From positions 1,533,614-1,553,613 of the forward strand of contig NC_057757.1 of the NCBI RefSeq assembly GCF_004010195.1: a stretch of DNA of 20,000 nt. The letters are read 5' to 3'. This DNA is from Chiloscyllium plagiosum. Lineage: Eukaryota. The notes beneath the pieces were generated by a model. That model made no database searches. It was not told where the DNA came from and was given only the letters and a program-made list of their open reading frames with translations. The translations under genes were made by a program, and so were the position numbers. Position 1 is the first letter of the stretch. The number at the start of each line of letters is the position of its first letter. Shown here in pieces: positions 1 to 20,000 of this stretch.

Positions 1-553
1 GCAAATTGACAGTTCTGCTAAAGCTGCATAAAATGGCTTTTTATTTTACTAACTGCTAATTCTGCTATAACTGCATAAGTGACTAACCACAGTCTGTTTC
101 AATAGAGATTAGCAGATAATACTCCCTTTACGCACAGAAATAACTAGACTAGATAAGACATTACTGGCCACCTTCAGATGTAGGTGCAATGGCTAGGTTT
201 GTGAGATAAGGGTAGCCTGAGTATTGGAAAATAAAGTTGGTTCCCAGGAAATATCATTGGACTGAGTAACTGTCAAATAAAGCAGTATCATGTATTGATT
301 GATAATTGTTTGAATATACTGTGTGCTCATGGCTTGTATCCAAATGTCTTTGTGTTAAGCCATGTGTGCAGCTCCTCTGAGGAACACGGAAGTGCACAAC
401 CTCTGTGTTTCTGGACGCTCTATGCCCAGCCATATGAAGAAATAAAGAATGAAGTCTTAAAGACTCAGACTGATTGTGAGTGCTTATTGGCTGATCACAG
501 AACAGAGAAAAAGAGAGACACCCCCCGCCCCCCCATCAGGGTCCAGATCTTCA
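1..553 (+). repeat. 5' LTR (start lies about 137 bp upstream of the window; full length about 690 bp)
   Basis: Matches the 3' copy from 8369. Ends TCAGGGTCCAGATCTTCA, an imperfect inverted repeat of the 3' LTR start TGAGGATCTGAACCTGA (TG...CA termini). Candidate polyA signal AATAAA at 441-446. Confidence 0.9.
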
Positions 554-573
554 TCGCGTGCCATGAGTCAGAC
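554..573 (+). promoter_or_regulatory. Degenerate primer binding site, probably tRNA-His
   Basis: Directly after the LTR-terminal CA. 558-573 GTGCCATGAGTCAGAC matches 12/16 to GTGCCGTGACTCGGAT of the tRNA-His PBS (TGGTGCCGTGACTCGGAT); two mismatches are CpG-type transitions. Confidence 0.7.
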
Positions 574-752: not shown

Positions 753-761
753 TTGGTAAGA
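753..761 (+). promoter_or_regulatory. Candidate major splice donor
   Basis: TTG|GTAAGA about 200 nt downstream of the LTR, in the position expected for a retroviral major splice donor. Confidence 0.45.
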
Positions 762-784: not shown

Positions 785-1157
785 GGAGTCGGGAACTCAC
801 ATAAAGATCGGGGACCTACAGATTGGGGATCCGGAATAAAGTCAGGGACTCTAAAGATTAAAAAGGAGTTGGGGACTCCAGGGAGTCGGGGACTCCACTT
901 AAAAGGCTGGGGACCTATGGATCAGGGATCCAGAATAGAGGCATGGACTCTAAACATTATAAACGAGTTGGGGACTCCACTTACAGGTCGGGGACCTGCG
1001 GATCGGAGATGCGGAATAGAGTCAGGGACTCTAAAGATCATAAAGGAGTCTGGAACTCCAGGGAGTCAGGGACTCCACATAAAGTTCCGGGACCTGTGGA
1101 TCGGGGATCTGGAATAGAGTCGGGGACTCTAACATTAAATAAACAAGTTAGGGACCT
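785..1157 (+). repeat. Tandem array of about 19 short stem-GGG-stem hairpin units in the retroviral leader
   Basis: Units such as GGAGTC-GGG-GACTCC (882-896), CAGGTC-GGG-GACCTG (984-998), TGGATC-AGG-GATCCA (918-932) and TAGAGTC-GGG-GACTCTA (1115-1131), arranged in four 80-100 bp modules with a higher-order period of about 180 bp. Confidence 0.9.
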
Positions 1158-3044
1158 GAGTAAGGAAGTACAAATTAATCAGGGGCTCAAATTCGGTCAA
1201 ATTGGAGTTGTCTAAATTGATTTCCAAATTATTCTGTGAAAGACAAAACAAAGATGTTTCGCGATATATGTCAGTTTTAGAATGTTTTGCAGAAATCATT
1301 AGTCTTGTTCGTTGTTGGGTTGTTGATTAGTGAAAGTTTCAAGTCGAGATTATCTTCTCTGTTTGACTTGGCTTGTCTTGCTTTGCTGCTTTGTCTTGTT
1401 GTCTGCTATGGTTTTGTTCTAGTTGTTTTGGTGTTTGTTCTTTGTTTATGAAATATAGAGGATGGTTGCTACTTTTGTCGCGTTTAAAAAGAAAAGCCGG
1501 CCAGTGATACAATTCTCACACATTTTGTTAAGCAGCTATGTGCCACAGCCAGATTTAAGCTAAACTCCCTAATTTTGACAGTTCTGGAATGTGAGTGCCT
1601 CATTACCCTTAAAATGTTCATAAGTGTGTATGTGAGAGAGAGAGAGACAGAGGCCAAGACTCAGTGCTGATTCACTGCAGCTTGCAGAAAGTTTAACCCT
1701 TTGAGATTTGGTTTGAATGTACTTTTGCTTGTTGGTGATTGAATGTTTGTCTTTTGTTCCCTGGAGCTCGAGATCCGGGACTGTTTTGAATTTGATTTAC
1801 ATATTGGGAATTTAGCATGATTTCAAGGTTAAGGATCCATCAGTGATTATGAAATGAAATATTAGCCCCTGTTCTTTTTACAGGCCATGACTGCCCTACT
1901 GTCAATTTCTAACTAATCACTTTTATGCTACATCAACGCCAATCTTATTTAATTTCTAACCAGTTTAATATGGCGGAAGACAACATTATAATCTTTTTTA
2001 GAAAGTCTTCTCCTTCGATTCTGCATCATTTGACATCAGTATAAACTTGCTGTCAAATTCCCCATAATTTCATGCTACTACCAAAGATCATTTCCATCCC
2101 TCTCACCCCTACGTGTTGTACTAATGAAAGAATTGACTAAAGGAAGTAAAGCAGTAGTACTAAATCTGGGCCTCGGGTGCAGAATCATTCTGTTCCAGGA
2201 TGAGAGTAGGTCAATGCTCAACTTTAGTTATAATCTAAACCTAACATTGAGGAAAATCACTTCAGACTTCAACATTTGCATGAACCTTATTTCATTTAGT
2301 TAAATTTTGTAAAACTGAAAGTATAAAGATAGATCCAAAATATCCCATAACAACAGCATTGTTTTCAGAAAATGATACTAGAGATTTAATTTTTGTTTCA
2401 GACTCGTTTGTTTCCACTTAATTTTAAGGCTGTTGTGTCTCATTGGTGATTATGGTGTGCCAGTCGTAGCTTTATTTTATCTCAATTTTCCTCCCTCAAT
2501 GACAAATGAATTTTCAGTTCAACATTATGTTGTAGTAAATCATGTAACAAAATTAACATCTTATTGTTAATATCTGTGTCTTTGGATTCGGCGATTACTT
2601 GTGCATTAGAAGTTTTTTCTTACCATGTGAGTAGACAAGACCTTTGAGGCAGCTGCAGTTATTTCACGGCCGATAGCATTGTAAATGAGCAATGACTGGC
2701 CAGGACTGCTTAAGGAATCTAATCTGGGATCTACATTAAGGGACTAGAACAAGGTAATTATAATGGATTTCAGAGTTGAAAACTGTATACATTTTACATT
2801 TTAAATATTGAATACTGAATAAATGAATTTCCAATTTATACTGATAACTTGTAAAATGTCTTAGCCACTTGTTCAGTTTCCACCTCTGAATTACAGATAA
2901 TGATTATTTTATTTATTATTTTTTGATAATCAATTGTTTTGGCCCTGAATCACAAAATCAGAATTAATTGGCAGGATCGCTTGGCTTTATCCCTTTACAC
3001 ATTGTCAGTGACCTGTCTCATTGCCTCACAGTTAATTTGAAGTA

Positions 3045-4360
3045 TGGTTGCATTAATTCGTTGCTAACTAAAGAAAGGAAAGATACCTTACTGGCCAGAT
3101 GACGGTATTCTACATTTGATTGGGGGATAGAGGTATGTATAGCAGATGGAACTCCCAAACGCTGGGAGGTGTTCATAGCTGACTGTGAATGGGGAGATGA
3201 AAGAATAAAAGGGACATGAGAAACAGTATCAGGCCACTAAAGCTAAGGAAAATACAAACAGGGTTAAAGGGTTAAAGCAACAATGCTGTAAAATAAAGAA
3301 CATAGATTCTACTCGGAATCCCAAGCCTATGTCTGGCATACTGACCCTCTTTGAGGATGGGGATTTTATTCTTGGATATCTGCTAAGCCCCTGACATCTC
3401 CTGATTGTCCCCAGCACACACACACACACCCTCCCCTTTCCTTCTTTTGAAAATGAAGCATCCAGTCTTCGTAGCCGATATCATGGGGATGAGTGGCCTG
3501 CGCCATCCTAAACCAGGGCCCATCCTGGGAACCAGAGTAATGTTGATGAAGCATGCCCCTGACCGCAAGAACAAACCAGCCCAGTTTGCTCAATACGTCC
3601 AAAGGACGATACACATGTAAATGCAGTAAAATTCTGGGAGTAGCCTGAATGTGAATGGCTTGCGTTATAAAACTGAAATATGTAGCCATCTAGATTAGAT
3701 TAGATTAAATTACTTACAGTGTGGAAACAGGCCCTTCAGCCCAACAAGTCCACACCGACCTGCCGAAGCGCAACCCACCCAGACCCATTCCCCTACATTT
3801 ACTCCTTCACCTAACACTATGGGCAATTTAGCATGGCCAATTCACCCAACCTGCATCTGTCTGATGGAAGTGGTGTACAATTGAAAAAATAATCAAGAAG
3901 CTGAGTCATGTTTGTTTAACCCTGTGCTTTTGCAATGTTTTCCTCCTGGTGTCATTGACATGATCCAGACAAACCATATGAACTAGTCCAGGAATTTCCA
4001 GTCGCAAATGAGGTGAGCAGTGGTTTTCTATTGGGACGGCCAGTATCAGACTGAACCATGATACAAGTTACAGGTAAAACCGATTGTATCCAGCACCCTC
4101 GCGATCCCCAATATCATGTGTCAGCCCCAACGGGGTTGATTGGGACCAGCATACCCAGTGCTGGTGGAAACTACCTCAGATGCCCACCCAGCGACCTCTG
4201 CTGAGCAACCCTTTCCCGAGGGAACCCTGGAAATGGGGTCAGGCAGGCTTCAGAATTACACCTTTGTGACTGGAAACAAGACAGCAAAACCTTTCAGGGA
4301 CAAATGGCTGGCCCTTGCTTTAACTGTGGAAATATGGCCACTTGAGAGTGATGTGTCTTT
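3045..4360 (+). pseudogene. gag: gag remnant (MA fragment, CA C-terminal-like region, single NC zinc knuckle), interrupted by a SINE
   Basis: KKGKIPYWPDDG/TFD at about 3071-3120 resembles the gammaretroviral MA motif WPxDGTF. CFNCG(K)YGHLRVMC at 4316-4356 is CX2CX4HX4C after repairing a 1-nt deletion. Boundaries approximate. Confidence 0.75.
3690..3858 (-). mobile_element. 5'-truncated shark SINE (HE1/V-SINE-like) inserted in gag
   Basis: (TAGAT)n tail followed by CTTACAGTGTGGAAACAGGCCCTTCAGCCCAACAAGTCCACAC, the reverse complement of the 3' half of the SINE at 17340-17635. Confidence 0.9.
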
Positions 4361-4400
4361 AATGTTACCTTGGAGCTAATGTAGGGAATCGACATGCTTA

Positions 4401-4630
4401 CAAAAGGAATATCTGCTAATATACACTGACTCTTAGTTGTGCTTTTGATGTGACCCACCATTTTGGTGCCTTGTGGGAACATAGAGGATTTTTACCCTCC
4501 ACGAGGTGGCATTACAGTAATGTTGTTTTGTCCAACCTGTCAGTTATCAAGATGTTCGGCTCACACTGACACCACTGATAGTGTCCAAAGTAATGAGCAG
4601 ATGGATGCTGCTGCCAAGCAGGCAGCCTTA
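4401..4630 (+). pseudogene. pol: pol remnant: C-terminal part of RNase H
   Basis: Frameshifted KGISANI-TDS-CAFDVTHHFGALWEHRGFL (cf. NIYTDSRYAFGxxHxFGxLWxxRGFL) and CSAHT...NEQMDAAAKQAAL (cf. CxAHT...GNxxADxAAKxAA). Confidence 0.9.
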
Positions 4631-4699
4631 CACCCCAAAACGTCTGGTCCCATTGTGCCTCCAGCAAAACCTGAATAGAGACAATATGGGGACAGGTGT

Positions 4700-5330
4700 G
4701 CCAGACCTGGGTATGGTACAGAAATCACAGGGAAAGCCCCCTGCTGAAGAGCACAAACTATGGCCTCAAATAGGGTACTCCCTCGATACTCAAACCAAAA
4801 TGTGGGTGACTCCTGCTGGACATGTTTGTGTTTCTTCTTTGCTGCTGCCTATTTTGGTTGATTATGTACATTATTGTACACACTTGGGCAAGGAAGGAAT
4901 GGTTAATACTTTTACAAACTTGGTGGCATGCAGATTTTCAGAAAGCAGCTAGAAAAAGAGCTGCGGTGTGTTTAATTTTTAAGCAAACAAGACACATGCT
5001 GTAAAAGGTTGTTAACCACTTCCTTGCCTAGTGGGCCTTTTTTACTTGTCTACAGCTTGCTTTTAAAGAATTACCTCACATACATTGTTATGAATATTGG
5101 CTAATAATAGTAAATGTTTTTAGTAGATGAATCAAAATCACCCCAATGACTGATACTGCTGCCACTATAGTGGTGGACAGGTGAGAAGTATTTGCATCAG
5201 TAACCAGAATTAAATTGGAGCCTAGGTGGAAAGACCTGTTCCTAGTCCGGCTGGTCACCCGTGCAGCAGTCAAGACCAAGGGAAAGCTGCATAGACGCAT
5301 GGGATGCAGTGCAAGAGAACACCGCCCCAA
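4700..5330 (+). pseudogene. pol: pol remnant: integrase Zn-binding domain, start of the catalytic core, then C-terminal domain (most of the core deleted)
   Basis: VHYCTHLGKEGM...TWWHADFQKAARKRAAVCLI (HHCC region); PSGPF..LQLAFKELP..YEYWLIIVNVFSR*I (core start); jump at about 5175 to RIKLEPRWKDLFLVRLVTRAAVKTKGK...HGMQCKR (CTD). Confidence 0.9.
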
Positions 5331-5491
5331 GGAGAAAATCTATTGATTAATGCTTTGTTACCTGCAAAACCCACGACCACAGATGTCCCCAATTGACTGT
5401 TTTTGCAATTATTATATTGTTTTTAATTGTCCTCGGTATAACCTGGTGGCCTCTACTAAGAAAGAACTGCATTTTAATACTTTCCTTTCAG

Positions 5492-5660
5492 CTGCTCCCC
5501 TCCCTCGACAATGGTCCGGCTGTTGGACCTGGCTCATTCATTCTCATCAAGAATTGGACACACTGCAGCCTCCAACCTCGACGACAGGGGCTCTGCCAGG
5601 TTCTCCTCACCACCCCTACTGCTCTTAAGGTTGCTGGGCATCTCCATCATTGCAAGATCA
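5492..5660 (+). pseudogene. Second, divergent integrase C-terminal domain preceding env
   Basis: PGSFILIKNWTHCSLQPRRQGLCQVLLTTPTALKVAG-HLHHCK matches the gamma-type IN CTD pattern PGDxVLIKxW...LQPRWxGPYQVLLTTPTAxKV...WIHxxHxK. Preceded by the splice-acceptor-like CTTTCCTTTCAG (5480-5491). Confidence 0.85.
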
Positions 5661-6226
5661 TCGGACGAGCCCCTTGCAAGGGGAGAGATGATGAAGATCA
5701 AACTTAACCTGTTGTGTGGACTCATCATCATCGGCATTAATGCTCAAGAATGGACTATTTATCAGTGTGATCCTAAGCAACCAGAGACTGTATACCATTT
5801 GTGCCGAAAAGATGTCCTTGTGTGCCAAGAGACTGATTCCTTCGATGCATGAAACATTACCAAGAATAACCGTCGCAATGGTCAACTGCATCAAGAAGAT
5901 CGGACAGTTCATTTACAGGACAAGTCTCAATGGTCTTTACCCTGTCAAGGTGTTTTATACCAGTTTGATTTCAGTTGTGCTATGGGCAGCCCTGGTAAGC
6001 TTTGACCCGATCCAAATAGGTCTCAATCTGCACGCCACAAAAGAGAAAAGTGGAAATGTCGTCTTTCACTAACAATTTCTTTTTTTGAAGTCATAATAAA
6101 ATATTCAGCCAGGATGTTACGCCCTCTCAGCAGCAAAGGACTCTTTGACCCTTTCCCCCTTCCGAATCCTAATGACGGAGTATGGAATACTTCTAAGGCG
6201 TTTACCAGACATAATGTTTCCTTTGA

Positions 6227-6466
6227 GGAGAAAGTGAGGACTGCAGATGCTGGAGATCAGAGCTGAAAATGTGTTGCTGGAAAAGCGCAGCAGGTCAGGC
6301 AGCATCCATGGAACAGGAGAATCAACGTTTCGGGCATAAGCCCTTCTTTAGGAATCTTCAGGAAGCGCACAGATTCCTGAAAAAGGGCTTATGCCCGAAA
6401 TGTCGATTCTCCTGTTCCTTGGATGCTGCCTGACCTGCTGCGCTTTTCCAGCAACACATTTTCAGC
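6227..6466. mobile_element. Fold-back non-autonomous Penelope-derived element inserted in env
   Basis: Perfect 17-bp TSD CATAATGTTTCCTTTGA (6210-6226, 6467-6483); long internal inverted repeat; homologous to the terminus of the Penelope element at 11147-11280. Confidence 0.9.
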
Positions 6467-7172
6467 CATAATGTTTCCTTTGATTATTATTTATCCCCAC
6501 CTGCTGTCTGTTTGTGGACATCCTCTCATAAGTCCAGAGTAGCATATCCAAATTGTTACAACGGTACGGGATGGGAGTGCACTTACGTGAATGTGACTAA
6601 GACTATTCCATGTGCCTTGGTCAAAAGTAACAACCACTACTGCTCCCCTGTGGGGCCTCTCATCTCATGCATATGCCTACAGGAAGAGTGTGTCTCTGTT
6701 AGTGCAGATATTCAGGCTGTATGTGATATGGGTAACAGCACCGCCCACCTTCACTATGAGATCTCTAATGGCACTTCCATCTTCCCAGTTGTGGGATGGA
6801 AGGAACCAGTCTGGGACGATAACCTTACCTCTTACAAGAAGACCCATCTCTTTTTATTGAACATCTTTCACCCTAAGCGCCCAGGGCAACCATACTTTGT
6901 AGCCATGGACTACCTGTTCGTTTGGGGTAGTCACAAAGATAGGCCTGCTTCTTATTGGGAAGCCCCATCCATTATCTGTACTAAATCTGGTTATTGATTT
7001 TTCAGCCAAGGCAAAGTGACTAACTTCCTTGTTCTTAATGAAATAGGTACTCCCCGTGCTGTAGCTGAGGGATACTTCTATAGAACCATCTATAGAATCC
7101 ATCTACCATGCCCGCTGTCAAGGAAAGGCCGCAAGCATTCTCAAAAATCCATCCCACCCTGGCAATGTTTTT

Positions 7173-7449
7173 CTACCATCAGGAAGAAGGTACAGAAGCC
7201 TGAACACATGCACCAGCCAGTTTCGGAACAGTTTCTACCCTACTGTTAGAATACTGAATGGACTCTCAAACTTTTAACATTTGCCTGAACCTGTGTTTTT
7301 GTTTTTGCTGCTGTTTATCTTTTATTTACTTAGCTATGCTATTTAACTCTGTGATCTGCCTGTATTGCTCATAAGGCAAAGTTTTTCACTGTGCCTCGGT
7401 ACACGTGACAATAAATCCAATTCAATCCAATTCAGTTCAATTCAATTCA
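7173..7449 (+). mobile_element. 3' end of a Rex1/Babar-like LINE inserted in env
   Basis: Encodes LPSGRRYRSLNTCTSQFRNSFYPTVRILN*, typical of the Rex1-type ORF C-terminus; AATAAA then a (TTCAA)n tail; TTTTTC on both sides (7168-7173, 7450-7455). Confidence 0.8.
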
Positions 7450-8219
7450 TTTTTCCCGATTACTGTTCCCTGGTCCAACTACCTGGGAATGGGGTTGGGG
7501 TTTCCCTACCAAACGTTCAGTTTCACCTGAATTCTGCACATATTGGAGGGATGCTAAGGCTTTGGGCAACAGTAAAGCCCAGTCTGTGGGCTACACATTT
7601 CTTAGTGCTTTTTCCTTAGGAGGATCTGCAGGAATTATTAGCCACCCAAATTGAAATTATATTATTTGCGGTCTCACCCTCTTGGGCAACAAGACTGCCT
7701 CGGCCTTAGCAGGAGTTAAGGGTATGCTCTCAGAATTATGTCTATTTTCCGGTATGCTCTCGACTACCTACTCACCAAACAGGGTGGGGTTTGCGCCATA
7801 GTGAAGGGCAAATGTATGATGGGGGTTACCAGCCTCATCGAGAATATTAACAAGCATGTGGATAACATCCGCACCTTCGTCAGTTAAATGACAGAAGACT
7901 CTGGATGGGGAGATTGGGGTGTTGACTCATGGTACAACTGGTTGATAAATCTATGTATATTGGTATTATTTTAATTTGTCTCTTTGCTGGCATTGCTATA
8001 GTTAAATGTATTATTGTTAAGTTAATGAATTCTGTTGACAACATCAGTTCCCCCCAGAAAATGCTTCTTCTCTATCCAAGTGAAGGTGAGGAGGAGCAGT
8101 TGCCCACCCCTGCTTCCTCGGAGGAGGAGGAGGAGGAGGTATGGCAGGCTCTAGCATCCGTTCGATTGGACTAAACTAATCTATGCCCTCCCTCCTACGG
8201 TGTGATCATTGGAATGACC

Positions 8220-8231
8220 AAAAGGGGGAGA
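8220..8231 (+). promoter_or_regulatory. Polypurine tract
   Basis: AAAAGGGGGAGA immediately before the TG of the 3' LTR. Confidence 0.9.
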
Positions 8232-8681
8232 TGAGGATCTGAACCTGAATACTGGCTGAGGTAACTAGTTGTTGTCAAGAACAACCACTTAATAGATGCT
8301 CTTAATAACTTAGGTGGCAACAAGATGGCCTCTCGATGCAAATATCATGACAAAATGGCTTCGAGGCTGCAAATTGACAATTCTGCTAAAGCTGCATAAA
8401 TGGCTTTTAAGTTACTAACTGCTAATTCTGCTATAACTGCATAAGTGACTAACCACAGTCTGTTTCAATAGAGATTAGCAGATAATACTCCCTTTACGCA
8501 CAGAAATAACTAGACTAGATAAGACATTACTGGCCACCTTCAGATGTAGGTGCAATGGCTAGGTTTGTGAGATAAGGGTAGCCTGAGTATTGGAAAATAA
8601 AGTTGGTTCCCAGGAAATATCATTGGACTGAGTAACTGTCAAATAAAGCAGTATCATGTATTGATTGATGATTGATAATTG
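8232..8681 (+). repeat. 3' LTR, truncated (lacks the last about 245 bp)
   Basis: Starts TGAGGATCTG after the PPT; 8369-8681 aligns to 1-308, then homology stops abruptly at CR1 sequence. Confidence 0.92.
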
Positions 8682-10893: not shown

Positions 10894-11146
10894 TACTCCT
10901 CTTCTGTAAATTACAACCACACTATGCTTGGTAGATGAGACCCAGTCCTGAGTTCTTAAATCCAGAGGAACACTAGCCTTGATTTGGTTTTGATTAAATT
11001 GTGGCACAGTGGGCCTTGGCCGGCAGGTCAGCTCCCCGATGACACAAGATTCCATCTGAGGAAGTGAGGATTCAAAAGAATACCAGCCCTTTCCTTTCCT
11101 GAGACCAGTTATGATAATATACAATGGTAAGGAGTATTTTGAAGCA

Positions 11147-12317
11147 GGCAAAAGTGAGGACTGCAGATGCTGGAAACCAGAGTTTAGATCAGAGTGGTGC
11201 TGGAAAAGCACAGCAGGTCAGGCGGCATCCGAGGAGCAGGAAAATCGATATTTCAGGCAAAAGCCCTTCATCAGGAATGGAAGCAGGGAGCCTCCAGGGT
11301 GGAGAGATAAAGGTGGGGGGAGAGGTAGCAAAGAGTGAATAGGGTGGGGATGGAGGTGATAGGTCAGAGAGGAGGGTGGAGCGGTTAGGTAGGAAGGGAG
11401 ATTGGCAGGTAGGACAGGTCATGAGGGCTGCTGAGCTGGAAGGTTGGAATTTGGGTAAGGTGGGGGGAGGGGAAATGGGGAAACTGGTGAAGTCCACATT
11501 GATGCCCTGGGGTTCCGAGGTGAACGATGAGGCGTTGTTCCTCCAGGTGTTGGGTGGTGAGGGAGTGGCAGTGAAGGAGGCCCAGGACCTGCATATCCTC
11601 GGTGGAGTGGGAGGGGGAGTTGAAATGTTGGGCCACGGTTGGTGGAGTTGATTGGTGCGGGTGTCCCGGAGATGTTCTCTGAAGCGCTCTGCGAGGAGGC
11701 GTCCAGTCTCCCCAATGTAGAGGAGACTGCATAGGGAGCAACGGATACAATAAATGACATTGGTGGATGTGCAGGTAAAACGTTGATGGATGTGGAAGGC
11801 TCCTTTGGGGCCTTGGATGGAGGTGAAGGAGGAGGTGTGGGCACAGGTTTTGCAATTCCTGCGGTGGTAGGGGACGGTGCCAGGACTGGAGGGTGGGTTG
11901 TTGGTGGGCGTGGACCTGACCAGGTAGTCACGGAGGGAATGGTCTTTGCGGAAAGTGGAAAAGGGATGGGGAGGGAAATATATCCCTGGTGGTGGGGTCT
12001 GTTTGGAGGTGGCGGAAATGTCAGCGGATGATGCGGTTAATGTGAAGGTTGGTAGGGTGGAAAGTGAGCACCAGGGGGGTTCTGTCCTTGCTATGGTTGG
12101 AGGGGTGGGGTTTGAGGGCAGAAGTGCGGGATGTGGATGAGATGCATTGGAGGGCATCTTTAACCATGTGGGAAAGGAAATTATGATCTCTAAAGAAGGG
12201 GGCCATCTGGTGCGTTCTGTGGTGGAACTGGTCCTCCTGGGAGCAGATACGGGGGAAGCGGAGGAATTGGGAATACGGGAGGTAGGTGGGAAGAGATGTA
12301 ATCCAGATAGCTGTGGC
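11147..12317 (-). mobile_element. 5'-truncated Penelope-like retroelement with GIY-YIG endonuclease remnant
   Basis: ORF 11189-12328(-) contains RRNCKTC...FTCTSTNVIYCIRCSLCSLLYIGETGRLLAERFREHL; next frame VAQHFNSPSHS...EEQRLIVHLGT; 10-bp TSD TTTTGAAGCA (11137-11146, 12318-12327). Confidence 0.93.
11245..11278 (-). ncRNA. Minimal hammerhead-ribozyme-like core in the Penelope terminal repeat (degenerate)
   Basis: Minus strand CUGAUGA-A-GGGC-UUUU-GCCU-GAAAU-AUC. Minimal type I hammerheads are known from Penelope pLTRs. Confidence 0.65.
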
Positions 12318-13464
12318 TTTTGAAGCAACCTAGTGAGCTACAAGCTGAATCAATATTACCTTATGCTCGTGATCTTCACTCCTGCGTATCCCTCTATATC
12401 GTTATAAATTATGTCCATCTTGAAAAGAGGAAACATGACAGAAGTTTGTGATTGTAAATGTACTTTTAATTTAATTAAAAGAACCGAGTTAACTAAGTTC
12501 AGCACAATCTCTCCATCGCCCCACCCCCTTCAATCTCTGCTCACATCTGCTATGTTGATGACATTGAAAGTTTGGAGACTGGCATTATGCCAAAGAACTG
12601 AAAGCAAAAAAATCTTAAGACCAATGTTCTGTAAAGGTGCTAGCCATGGCAATTGTGAATTAATTTCAAGTGCAAAATGGATTTGACCATTGGAGCGGAG
12701 TAAATTAGTTGTGGGATCACATTAGATTTGGCCTGATCTACATAACAGTTATCAAATAATTTTCTTTTCAAAAAATAACAGTGCATGAATCAAAAGCATG
12801 GATTGGATATTGCAACCATAGGTTTTCAGAAAGCTGGATAAGAGATTTTAACCAAGTTAGGATCAGTAATATTAAAGTAATCAGACCTGCATTAGTGGAG
12901 AAATGGCTAAAGAAAGATAAGTTGTTGGTTGTTGATTTGGAGTTTATAATCTATTTCCAGTAAGACATAAATGTGTATAATTGTAGTAAGTTAGTAGAAA
13001 ATCAGGAAAATGAATGAAAGCTGATTGCAAGAAGATTTAGAAAAGCTCATGGACAGGTGGATATTTACAAAAATGCCATTCAAGTGAGAGAAACATTGAA
13101 GTCATATATCTTGTTACAGGACATATTCAATAGAGATAAATACAAAATAGTAAGGACTGGGAGAACCTATACAGAAATGGCTGTAAAAACAGAAGTTCAA
13201 TGAGATTGTATATATTGGGGCAATTAATATGAAAGCAAAGTAGCAATGTTGAACTGCTGGAGTAAAATTTGCAATCCTGCGCACCAACCTGTTGTTTAAA
13301 GTCACTCTCAAAATTTTGGAACTCAGATGATGTGATGTCATTCAGTTCTGTTGTATACTTCTGATTTATTATTCTGACAGAAATATTGACAGAGATTTCA
13401 ACAGCATCTGTAAAACATCAAATAGAGTTTCATTAATCATTCCTCAGACAAAATCTTACCTCAA

Positions 13465-14084: not shown

Positions 14085-16153
14085 AGAAGCAAGCAGTCAG
14101 CCCAGAGTGCATCTCACTTAAGGACAGTTTTTCCATGTTGGAATATGGCGAGATTGGTAGATCCTTTGGGGAGTGCATTCAGAGCCCAAGGAGGGAGCAT
14201 ACAGAGAGGAAGAGCTTTGATAGTGGTAGGGCACAGGCAAGTAACTCTCGGTTCATGGATGTGATTCCAGAATGGTACTTTGCCTCCCAGGGTCAAGGAT
14301 GCCACTGAACAACAACAGGACGTTCTGAAGGGGGGCGGTGAATGGTCAGAGCTAAGGTTCACATTGGAACAAATAGCATAGTTCAACAGAGGGACGAGGT
14401 TCTGCAAAAAGCATTTAATAAATTAGATATCGGTTTGAAAGGCAGAACCTCAAAGGTTATAATCTCTGGATTATTCCAAGTGTCATATGGTACTGCATAA
14501 GTGGATAGAATGGATGAATTTGTGGCTGAACAGTTGGAACAGGAGGGAGGGTTAAAGATTCCTGGATTATTGAGTCTGTTTCTCGGCATGGTGGGACCTG
14601 TACCAGTCCGGTGGGTTGCACCTGAACTGCAAAGTTGCCAATATCCTCACTAGAGAGTTTGCTAGCGATGTTGGAGTGTGATACAATGGAGGTACAGTAG
14701 TGTGTGAGGCCTGACAGTTTGGCAGTAGAGTGTATGTAATCAAATTAAGACACAAGGGATCTTGGCAAGATTGGATGACATTTATTTTAATGCAACGAGT
14801 CTTGTGAGAAAGCCAGATGAGTTGACGATGTTGATTAACACATGGAGTTATGACATCATACCTCCACAGAGGCATGATTGAGGGAGGTACAAGGCTGGCA
14901 GCTCAATATTCTGGGTATAGAATGTTCAGGCGAGACCGGGAGGGGTGTGTAAGAGGAGAGGATTTTGCCATATTGATCAAGGAGTCAATTATTGCAGTAA
15001 GTAAGTATGATATCTTCTTAATTGTTTCTCAAAGGCTTCTCAATTGAGCCATATGAGTAGAACTTCAAAAGCAAAAAAGGGGTCACTCTCATTGCTGGAA
15101 TTATTAATGTTAATGTCCTTGTACTTTCCGCTTTAGCTTTCCACAGCAGCCTTGAATAAATCTTCTCTGGACCTGGGGACCTCTCCAGTTGTCAGCTCAC
15201 CAAAATCATTCATACTCCTCCCTCTCAATAGAAAGGTGTTCCAGTGTATCACCATCTTCTTACCTGATTTCTGTACCTACATCATTCTTCTCTATCATGT
15301 ATAAAGATGTAAAGTACTCTTTTGAAATCTCATCCAAGTCTATTGGCTACACATACAGATTGCCACTTAGGACTCTGCTCAGTCCTGTACTTTTCCTGAT
15401 TATCCACTTGCTCTTAATCTACTTAGAAATGCGTTTGGATTTTTTTTACTCAGTACTTCTCTAATTTCTTTAAGTTACCCCCTATACTTTCAATGTACAT
15501 CTGAGACATGGTTTTCTGAGCCCTAGGCATCCACCAAATCCTGTTTTTCCTTATCCAATCCTGTACATTTCATGATATGCACAGTTCTCTGTTTTGGCCC
15601 TACTCCAGAGAAGGGATGCTAGAGGACTGGAGGTCATCTTTTGTACTAATATTCAGGAAGAATTGTAAGGATAAACAAGGGAACTAAAGGCCAGGGTGCC
15701 TGACATGAGTGGTAGGGAAATTATTGGAAAATAGGCTGAGGGGCAATCTACACTTGGAGAAGCAAGGATTAATCATGGATAGTCAGCATGGCTTTGTCAG
15801 AGGAAAATCATATCTGACAGGTTTGATTGAGTTTGTTGTGGAGGTGACTAGATGTGTAGATGAGGGCAGTGTGGTGGATGTAGTCAACAAGGACTTTGGT
15901 ATAGCTACTGACAAGGTCTGACATGGGAGACTTGTCAAGAATGTAAGAGCCCCTGGAATCCAGGACATTTTGACAATTAGATCCAAAATGTGTTTAGTAG
16001 CAGGAGGTGGAGGGTAATAGTTGCAGGTTATTTTCTTGACTGCAAGCCTGTGTTCAATGGCATACCTCAGAGGTCAGTGCTGGGTCCTTTGCTTTTTATT
16101 GTCGACATGAATGATCCAGACATGAATGTATGTAAACTTGCTCGCTTAGCTGG
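14085..16153 (+). mobile_element. Degraded CR1 LINE: ORF1 (SGNH esterase-like), ORF2 endonuclease start, inverted linker segment, RT; runs into the gap. May extend 5' to about 13630
   Basis: DSRMVLCLPG...VHIGTN...RTSKVIISGL...GLHLN (ORF1 esterase); YFNATSL..DEL, GYRMFRRDR (EN); SQHGFVRGKS...GIPQRSVLGPLLFIVDMND (RT). Confidence 0.88.
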
Positions 16154-16653
16154 NNNNNNNNNNNNNNNNNNNNNNNNNNNNNNNNNNNNNNNNNNNNNNN
16201 NNNNNNNNNNNNNNNNNNNNNNNNNNNNNNNNNNNNNNNNNNNNNNNNNNNNNNNNNNNNNNNNNNNNNNNNNNNNNNNNNNNNNNNNNNNNNNNNNNNN
16301 NNNNNNNNNNNNNNNNNNNNNNNNNNNNNNNNNNNNNNNNNNNNNNNNNNNNNNNNNNNNNNNNNNNNNNNNNNNNNNNNNNNNNNNNNNNNNNNNNNNN
16401 NNNNNNNNNNNNNNNNNNNNNNNNNNNNNNNNNNNNNNNNNNNNNNNNNNNNNNNNNNNNNNNNNNNNNNNNNNNNNNNNNNNNNNNNNNNNNNNNNNNN
16501 NNNNNNNNNNNNNNNNNNNNNNNNNNNNNNNNNNNNNNNNNNNNNNNNNNNNNNNNNNNNNNNNNNNNNNNNNNNNNNNNNNNNNNNNNNNNNNNNNNNN
16601 NNNNNNNNNNNNNNNNNNNNNNNNNNNNNNNNNNNNNNNNNNNNNNNNNNNNN
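16154..16653. other. Assembly gap (500 N)
   Basis: Run of exactly 500 N. Confidence 1.
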
Positions 16654-17795: not shown

Positions 17796-20000
17796 CATAC
17801 AGTCATAGAGATGTGCAGCATGGACCAACTTGTCCATTCCAACCAGATATCCCAACCGAATCTAATCCCACCTGCAAGTACCTGGCCCATATCCCTCTGA
17901 ACCCTTCCTATTCATGTACTCATTAAGATGCCTTTTAAATGTTGCAACTGTACCAGCCTCCACCACTTCCTCTGGCAGCTCATTCCATACATGTACCACC
18001 CTCTGCGTGAAAAAGTTGCCCCTTAGGTCCCTTTTATATCTTTCCCCCCTCATCCTAAACCTCTAGTTCTGGACTCCCCAGCCCAGGGACAAGACTTTGT
18101 CTATTTATCCTGCCCATGCCCTTCATGATTTTATAAGCCTCTATAAGATCACCCCTCATCCACCGATGCTCCTGAGAAAACAGCCCCAGCCTGTTCAGCC
18201 TCTCCCTATAGCTCAAATCCTCCAACCCTGGTGACATCCTTGTAAATCTTTTCTGAACCCTTTCAGGTTTTACAATACATTTCCGATAGGAAGGAGACCA
18301 GATTTGCATGCAATATTCCAACCATGGCCTAACCAATGTCCTGTATAGCCGCAACATGACCTCCCAACTCTGATATTCAATACTCTGATCAATAAAGGAA
18401 AGCATACCAAACGCCTTCTTCACTATCCTATCTACCTGCCGCTTCTCAGCCCATTGGCCCATCTGGTCCAAATCCTGTTGTAATCTGAGGTAACCCTCTT
18501 CGCTGTCCACTACATCTCCAATTTTGGTGTCATCTGCAAACTTACTAAATATACCTCTTATGCTCGCATCCAAATCATTTATGTAAATGACAAAAAGTCG
18601 AAGACCCAGCACCGATCCTTGTGGCACTCCACTGGTCACAGGCCTCCAGTCTGAAAAACAACCCACCACCACCACCTTTGAGCCAGTTCTATATCAAATG
18701 GTGAGTTCTCCCTGTATTCCATGAGATCTAACCTTGCTAACCAGTCTCCCATGGGGAACCTTGTCAAACTCCTTACTGAACTGAAAATGTATTGCTGGAA
18801 AAGTGCAGCAGGTCAGGCAGCATCCGAGGAGCAGGAGAATTGACATTTCAGGCATGAGCCCTTCTTCAGGAAAGAGCTCATGCCCGAAACGTCGATTCTC
18901 CTACACCTTGGATGCTGCCTGACCTGCTGCGTTTTTCCAGCAACACATTTTCAGCTCTGATCTCCAGCATCTGCAGTCCTCACTTTCTTCTCGAAGAAAA
19001 CACCTTACTGAAGTCCATATAGATCACATATACCACTATGCCCTCATCAATCCTCTTTGTTACTTCTTCAAAAAATTTAATCAACTTTGTGAGACATGAT
19101 TTCCCACGCACAAAGCCATGTTAATCCCTAATCAGTCCTTGGCTTTCCAAATACATGTGCATCCTGTCCCTCAGGATTCCCTCCAACAACTTGCCCACCA
19201 CCGACATTAGGCTCACTGGTCTATAATCCCCTGGCTTGTCTTTACCACCCTTCTTAAACAGTGGTACACGTTTGCCAACCTCCAGTCTTCTGGTACCTCA
19301 TCTGTGACTATCGATGATACAAATATCTCAGTAAGAGGCCCAGCAATCACTTCTCTAGCTTCCCACAGAGTTCTTGGGTACACCTGATCAGGTCCTGGGG
19401 ATTTATCCACTCTTATGTGTTTCAAGACACCCAGCACTTCCTCCTCTGTAATATGGACATTTTTCAAGATGTCACCATCTATTTCCTTACATATCTTCCA
19501 TGTCCTTTTCCACAGTAAGCACTGATGCAAAATACTCGTTTAGCATCTCCCCCATCTCCTGCGGTTCCACACAAAGGCCGCCTTGCTGATCTTTGAGGGG
19601 CCCTATTCTCTGCCTAGTTACCCTTTTGACCTTAATGTATTTGTAAAAATCCTTTGTTTCTCCTTAACTCTATTTGCCAAAGCTATCTCATGTCCCCGTT
19701 TTGCCCTCCTGATTTCCCTCTTAAGTATACTCCTACTGCCTTTATACTCTTCTAAGGATTCACACCATCTATCCTGTCTATGCCTGACATATGCTTCCTT
19801 CTTTGTCTTAGCAAATTCTTAATTTCTTTCGTCATCCAGCATTCCCTCTACCTACCAGCCTTTCCTTTCACCATAACAGGAATATACTTTCTCTGGATTC
19901 TTGTTATCTCATTTCTGAAGGCTTCCCATTTTCCAGCCGTCCCTTTACCTGCGAACATCTGCCTCCAATCAGCTTTTGAAAGTTCTTGCCTAATACCATC
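17796..20000 (-). mobile_element. CR1 LINE ORF2 (RT and C-terminus) with internal deletions; continues beyond the window
   Basis: DKSPGPDQVYPRTLWE...VPEDWRLANV; TSGVPQGSVLG..LFVIYINDLD...KFADDTKIG; LYRTLVRPWLEYCMQIWSP; NFFTQRVVHVWNELPEEVV. Confidence 0.95.
18781..18997. mobile_element. Second fold-back Penelope-derived element, opposite orientation to 6227-6466, inserted in CR1
   Basis: 15-bp TSD with one mismatch (AAACTCCTTACTGAA 18766-18780; AAACACCTTACTGAA 18998-19012); internal inverted repeat; same family as 6227-6466. Confidence 0.9.

Follow-up and report, generated by a model that had tools for sequence, protein, structure and literature searches.

The window analysed here, 20,000 nt of Chiloscyllium plagiosum contig NC_057757.1 (positions 1,533,614-1,553,613, assembly GCF_004010195.1, forward strand; all positions below are counted within it), contains a provirus that is a dead copy of an old class I (gamma/epsilon-like) endogenous retrovirus (ERV) family in a cartilaginous-fish genome. 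Its features are as follows.

1..553, plus strand: 5′ LTR, starting about 135 nt before the window and matching the 3′ LTR
441-446, plus strand: AATAAA in the 5′ LTR
556..573, plus strand: degenerate primer binding site (PBS) for tRNA-His, located by alignment to the PBS of sister copies
754..760, plus strand: candidate major splice donor G/GTAAG, cut at 755/756, read from the sequence
785..1157, plus strand: array of 19 stem-C[GGG]G-stem units in four blocks of about 80-100 nt plus one unit, with A-rich linkers
1175..1189, plus strand: degenerate 20th unit (loop call at 1181), matching the last unit in most sister copies
1190..1353, plus strand: leader tail common to RT-bearing relatives, the similarity stopping about 50 nt before their gag ATG
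1400..3690, plus strand: internal region typical of the RT-less subfamily, without gag, PR or RT match
4864..5175, plus strand: broken integrase remnant (tblastn, 33% identity to P0002)
5560..8170, plus strand: broken env with SINE insertions, collinear with relatives
8220..8674, plus strand: polypurine tract (PPT, 8220-8231) and 3′ LTR truncated within U3 (LTR match)

This arrangement, with LTR, PBS and leader at one end and PPT and LTR at the other, is that of a class I ERV. In reverse complement, the sister-copy PBS matches the 3′ terminus of a tRNA-His gene from the genome (one of six loci scanned), and the env open reading frame of a sister copy gave a weak TLV_coat match (E 0.0012) lying under the curated cut-off. 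No match to gag, PR or RT was found in the window provirus, which holds only the integrase remnant and the broken env, in agreement with the first-pass annotation, which had described the genome as lacking RT; its relatives split into RT-bearing and RT-less groups. In the relatives that share the leader (the window copy itself being without RT), the RT is nearer to the MLV type than to other retroviral RTs: among solved structures the best match was MMLV RT (E 3e-35), with foamy virus RT at E 4e-21, and the nearest database proteins come from sharks and skates. The Gag of the relatives (seen in locus L086, about 2970-3100, oriented) has two CX2CX4HX4C (CCHC) knuckles in this class I family; gammaretroviruses usually have one. 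In a single-cell RNA run, poly(A) addition to transcripts of the LTR family falls at 456-463, the reads coming mostly from other copies. Presumed SINE insertions (within the provirus) and LINE/Penelope-like fragments (beyond its ends) lie at 3695-3855, 6226-6466, 7078-7450, 11140-12340 and 18055-19540, and an N gap is present near 16150-16650.

The ordered array that had been described at 785-1157 is present as such, with 19 units in the proposed order, in blocks of 4, 5, 4 and 5 followed by a single unit. The loops start at 791, 810, 825 and 844 in block 1, at 871, 888, 909, 924 and 943 in block 2, at 970, 990, 1005 and 1024 in block 3, at 1051, 1068, 1088, 1103 and 1122 in block 4, and at 1150 in the lone unit. 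The loop junction carries the expected trace of CpG-type decay, reading CG in 7 of 20 units, CA in 6 and TG in 4. The proposed period of about 180 bp holds as a layout (blocks with 1, 2, 1 and 2 GAGTC units) but not as a history, as alternate blocks are no more alike than neighbours; non-CpG divergence is 0.155 for blocks A-C, 0.146 for B-D, 0.111 for A-B and 0.118 for A-D, with all six pairs at 11-16%, values that rule out a recent 180-bp duplication. Regarding the formation of the hairpins, an unbroken stem of at least 5 bp around a G-rich triloop is present in 9/19 units (mean 0.73 and maximum 5 in 1000 dinucleotide shuffles) and the array has a folding z of -4.4, whereas in the modelled ensemble of the whole array most local stems are predicted not to be dominant. 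Mean predicted pairing is 0.29 across all units of the family and 0.50 for the 108 intact units.

An assembly artefact is excluded by an independent DNA run, in which one contig spans 718-1236 with four differences and no gaps. A second organism holds the pieces 708-884 and 1105-1236, and the array is genomic and probably older than the split from that organism. A coding role was also rejected: the reading frames across the array are interrupted by stops, with two open stretches of some 110-120 codons that derive from the repeat itself, and in the relatives the gag ATG comes only after the array.

The array begins at 785, about 30 nt downstream of the GGTAAG donor at 755/756, as the first-pass annotation had it, and the donor motif is exact in 26 of the 52 loci examined. 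The array thus occupies the interval between the candidate major donor and the start of gag, where packaging signals (psi) of retroviruses are found; about 200 nt separate the last unit from the start of gag in copies with RT, and in copies without RT the leader is retained until about 50 nt short of the gag ATG (eight RT-less copies and the window compared with one RT-bearing copy). A 3′-biased RNA run showed zero coverage over the array and listed no splice junction, an outcome that is uninformative on expression, and no RNA dataset was listed as containing the array.

A search with 480-1300, in which 40 of 245 candidates were scored, showed that all 39 matches outside the window share the leader at 74-87% identity. 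Among the copies fetched, those without RT are collinear with the window, and those with RT have LTR, leader and env in common with it. Units were called in 61 loci, of which 34 with both anchors were kept and 27 dropped; the caller has a background of 0.74 per 200 nt, so that counts may err by about one unit. The count is 20 in the window (19 plus the degenerate one) and 3-13 in the other 33 copies, usually about 7, with 4-12 in ten further copies with both anchors from 25 examined. Thus, the units occur across the family, and a locus-specific minisatellite is excluded for the units themselves and retained for their number: the figure of about 19 is not a feature of the family, and the large unit number is likely an accident of the window copy. 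All 18 RT-less copies with both anchors hold 3-9 units, a test of retention that is partly circular because these copies were found through leader similarity. The comparison of hairpin number in autonomous and deleted copies, which had been suggested as a check, gave a median of 7 units in RT-bearing copies (n=9) and 5.5 in RT-less copies (n=18; Mann-Whitney p=0.32), with six copies unassigned.

The RT-less internal region (window 1400-5400) was also seen in loci L092, L098 and L108, where the leader was not found, and the integrase has 33% identity to P0002 in the window, compared with 44-57% in RT-bearing relatives. Because of this occurrence without a detected leader and the low integrase identity, the RT-less element looks, on sequence grounds, like a recombinant.

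Other arrangements of the leader were also observed. Loci L165, L167, L169, L170 and L176 (near 6230-6500, oriented) form a deleted subfamily in which a leader with about one unit is fused straight to RT; these loci could be segmental duplicates. In L241 (6887-7730) and L242 (4665-5500; both oriented, contig C100664), a copy of the array and leader tail replaces part of env, with SU upstream and the TM end downstream, and arrays inside env are also present in L203, L205 and L207. The env-internal arrays have 24-34 called units (33-34 in the expanded copies L241 and L242, where about 20 two-hairpin repeats were counted by eye) and, because they sit inside env, would not be confined to unspliced RNA.

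The claim that the stems differ in sequence and stay complementary was borne out by 34 loci with 229 units between them, where mutual information was highest on the pairing diagonal, at 0.52 for pair 4, 0.43 for pair 5 and 0.93 for pair 6, and 12 distinct perfect stem types were found, 8 of them in at least two loci. When units were picked by the core motif only (221 units), 2.42 of the three outer pairs were Watson-Crick, compared with 1.23 ± 0.07 for shuffled arms. The units share ancestry, so that shuffle tests overstate their independence and do not give probabilities, and the weight of the covariation rests therefore on how many different double changes are seen. Cross-pairing between neighbouring units is lower than in shuffled order (1.56 vs 1.82 ± 0.07). 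Single mismatches at pairs 2-6 comprise 52 G-U and 62 A-C, and as G-U shows no excess over A-C, there is no sign of RNA-strand selection in the present-day decay.

Further variation was observed in a sister lineage placed by an RT tree, for which 14 of 20 loci were used (six being duplicate, truncated or already counted). Among its 120 units, the closing pair is U-A in 55 and C-G in 35, the commonest forms are U-GGG-A (30) and C-GAG-G (15), and the two unit types alternate. The loops overall are GGG/AGG or GAG, with GGG or GAG in the sister lineage. The stem-C[GGG]G-stem consensus therefore stands as a triloop hairpin and not in its details: GGG is not invariant and the closing pair changes, and since the sister lineage swaps both, what persists is the stem length and the G-R-G triloop. 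As judged from these alignments, the conserved unit has a stem of 6-7 bp capped by a G-R-G triloop. A conserved structure with exposed guanosines is accordingly indicated by covariation among units of shared ancestry, the predicted fold of the decayed window copy being mixed.

The expansion in the window copy can be dated relative to integration. Total divergence between the blocks is 15-18% and star-like, near twice the end branch of the window copy (0.096), a long but unexceptional tip in the tree built from 44 leader flanks (median 0.091); because of this correspondence, the four blocks were probably nearly identical around integration. The copies with 12, 13 and 20 units fall in different parts of the same tree. 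The LTR pair differs at 14 of 441 sites, compared with mostly 10-22% in other copies, and if this difference gave the true age, the blocks would be older than the integration (Fisher p 8e-8). However, positions 46-303 and 8412-8669 are identical over 258 nt, yet the first 135 nt hold 10 differences, and for this reason the LTR similarity is read as conversion. The young age suggested by a 3% LTR difference is doubted, as differences so uneven point to gene conversion or assembly homogenisation.

From its position, covariation, retention in RT-less copies and variable unit number, we infer that the array most likely binds Gag/nucleocapsid (NC) and acts in packaging. The reading that we favour, with confidence somewhat better than even, is that it is a family-wide set of covarying G-R-G hairpin motifs that probably served as Gag/NC-binding sites within the packaging signal, the 19-20 units of the window copy being likely a one-off expansion from the usual 7 or so. 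By analogy with established retroviral biology, unspliced RNA would keep the array, each stem would hold out the unpaired guanosines of its loop, and a helper Gag could bind several loops together through its CCHC knuckles. The divergences suggest that a single block of about 80-100 nt would have multiplied to four near the time of integration, through unequal crossing-over or through template switches of RT from one direct repeat to another, with neutral decay since. In the parts of the published reports available, several G sites or hairpins are described as acting together for NC in other retroviral leaders (PMC13736810, PMC7395439), and direct repeats as gaining and losing units through RT template switching (PMC5086612). 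The psi-like element proposed in the first-pass annotation thus keeps its family-wide presence, covariation, donor-to-gag position and retention in RT-less copies, but loses the role in trans that had been assigned to its amplification. The subfamily with about one unit, the env-internal arrays and the different repeat of a related lineage (described below) are awkward for packaging.

Moloney MLV and HIV-1 offer the closest comparisons. The core encapsidation signal of Moloney MLV (SL-A to SL-D) is likewise located in a class I leader between donor and gag and likewise consists of short conserved hairpins; as described in the portions consulted, it includes a GACG tetraloop pair and UCUG-UR-UCUG NC sites, with a covariation-defined motif common to related viruses (PMC5874298, PMC13736810). 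The shark array differs in having G-R-G triloops (GGG/AGG or GAG) and no MLV-type GACG tetraloop, in having 3-20 units and not a pair, and in lacking kissing-competent loops. HIV-1 psi (SL3 GGAG, many NC sites, a dimeric leader) also places a purine loop with exposed guanosines past the donor, and several G sites of its leader are described, in the parts available, as working jointly (PMC7395439, PMC13736810); its sites, however, lie in a unique fold, whereas the shark array repeats one hairpin type in tandem and in variable number. A search of 1-1600 against Rfam (E up to 5) returned two sub-threshold chance matches only. Coronaviruses, too, have a series of short hairpins that vary in the stem and not in the loop (the SL5 hexaloop repeats), but virus and protein are unrelated, and the likeness is one of analogy only.

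Host factors could also account for an array at this position. Proteins such as hnRNP F/H bind G-triplets, and G-runs near the donor might set the balance of spliced and unspliced RNA, or RNA export, through such binders, the stems serving to present the guanosines. The array begins 30 nt past the donor and contains 18 G-tracts, and its displacement into env would suit an element that is not needed to mark unspliced RNA. However, many loops of the sister lineage are GAG and not G-triplets, and G-run enhancers do not require covarying stems of 6-7 bp, which makes this explanation rather unlikely.

Dimerisation, the other function first suggested for the array, would take place if near-palindromic units converted to an intermolecular extended duplex, like SL-A/SL-B of MLV, or if loops were joined by G-quartets. 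The units are pseudo-palindromes, arms of the same type pair across units in the predicted fold, and MLV palindromes behave in this way according to the part of the report available (PMC5874298). As a kissing-loop signal, however, the array fails: the GGG/GAG loops are not self-complementary, so that no kissing step is expected, and the leader has only two CCC sites. An RNA G-quadruplex was rejected, as no canonical four-G-run pattern was found with loops of up to 12 nt and none appeared in the MFE structure with quadruplexes allowed. We consider dimerisation in either form unlikely.

A selectively neutral minisatellite whose palindromes are maintained through template-switch correction, or palindromic protein sites acting at the DNA level, would agree with a unit number that ranges from about 1 to 34 and is unrelated to RT status, with the absence of a G-U excess, and with the other post-donor repeats of related lineages. 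Against neutrality, pairs 1 and 3-6 show double changes from lineage to lineage, yet stem length, loop size and loop guanosines persist; a DNA-level protein site would preserve sequence rather than pairing. These explanations are very unlikely. That selection amplified the array to 19 units, letting an RT-less genome win packaging from its helper, is highly improbable: the longest leader arrays are mostly RT-less (window 20, L072 13, sister-lineage L248 14 and L250 11), but unit number does not differ with RT status (medians 7 vs 5.5), L129, with an RT match 4 kb downstream, has 12 units, scoring 40 of 1471 candidates against 1400-2400 turned up no copy above 88% identity, so that the expanded copy has no sibling among them, and block divergence dates the expansion to about integration. 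There is no sign that the extra units aided the spread of the window copy.

Returning to the favoured reading, a Gag/NC-binding part of the packaging signal, the array is a real structural motif, well supported by sequence comparison, and may plausibly act in packaging. The literature searched has little on how fish and shark class I retroviruses mark their genomes for packaging. The natural variation provides a ready-made structure scan, in which nearly every stem pair changes and the 6-7 bp stem and G-R-G triloop persist in two lineages, and the G-R-G hairpin may thus be taken as a precise candidate for a minimal Gag-binding unit. Natural arrays of 1 to more than 30 units also allow asking whether psi works by counting sites. 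A bolder and distinctly doubtful extension is that the clade builds psi as a copy-number-variable array of one interchangeable G-R-G hairpin, in which alternating stems would block mispairing of neighbours and the number of units (1 to more than 30, even in env) would tune Gag avidity and let defective genomes compete with the helper.

Tandem repeats of a few hundred bases occur in the 5′ leader of the epsilon/gamma-like fish retroviruses ZFERV and SSSV, and repeated leaders in fish class I retroviruses are therefore likely known already; to our knowledge, no covarying G-triloop motif is known for these repeats, and the covarying G-R-G unit is probably the new part. The openly accessible literature, including the available portions of PMC9967133, PMC8672886, PMC4977317, PMC8278194 and PMC12789967, gave no account of such an array, and a metagenome scan returned no leaders of relatives from other species.

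Within the genome, more distant RT families showed an exact core-motif cluster in none of 40 fetched loci, many of them being without a recognisable leader. Loci L180 and L221-L240 belong to a related lineage with the same PBS-donor leader and a different post-donor tandem array, with periods of 45-49 bp, A/U-rich and mostly without G-triloop hairpins. In a distant ERV family, represented by L197 (2029-2176 and 2739-2904, oriented), 34-bp CACGTG repeats and 58-bp hairpin repeats are located around the PBS.
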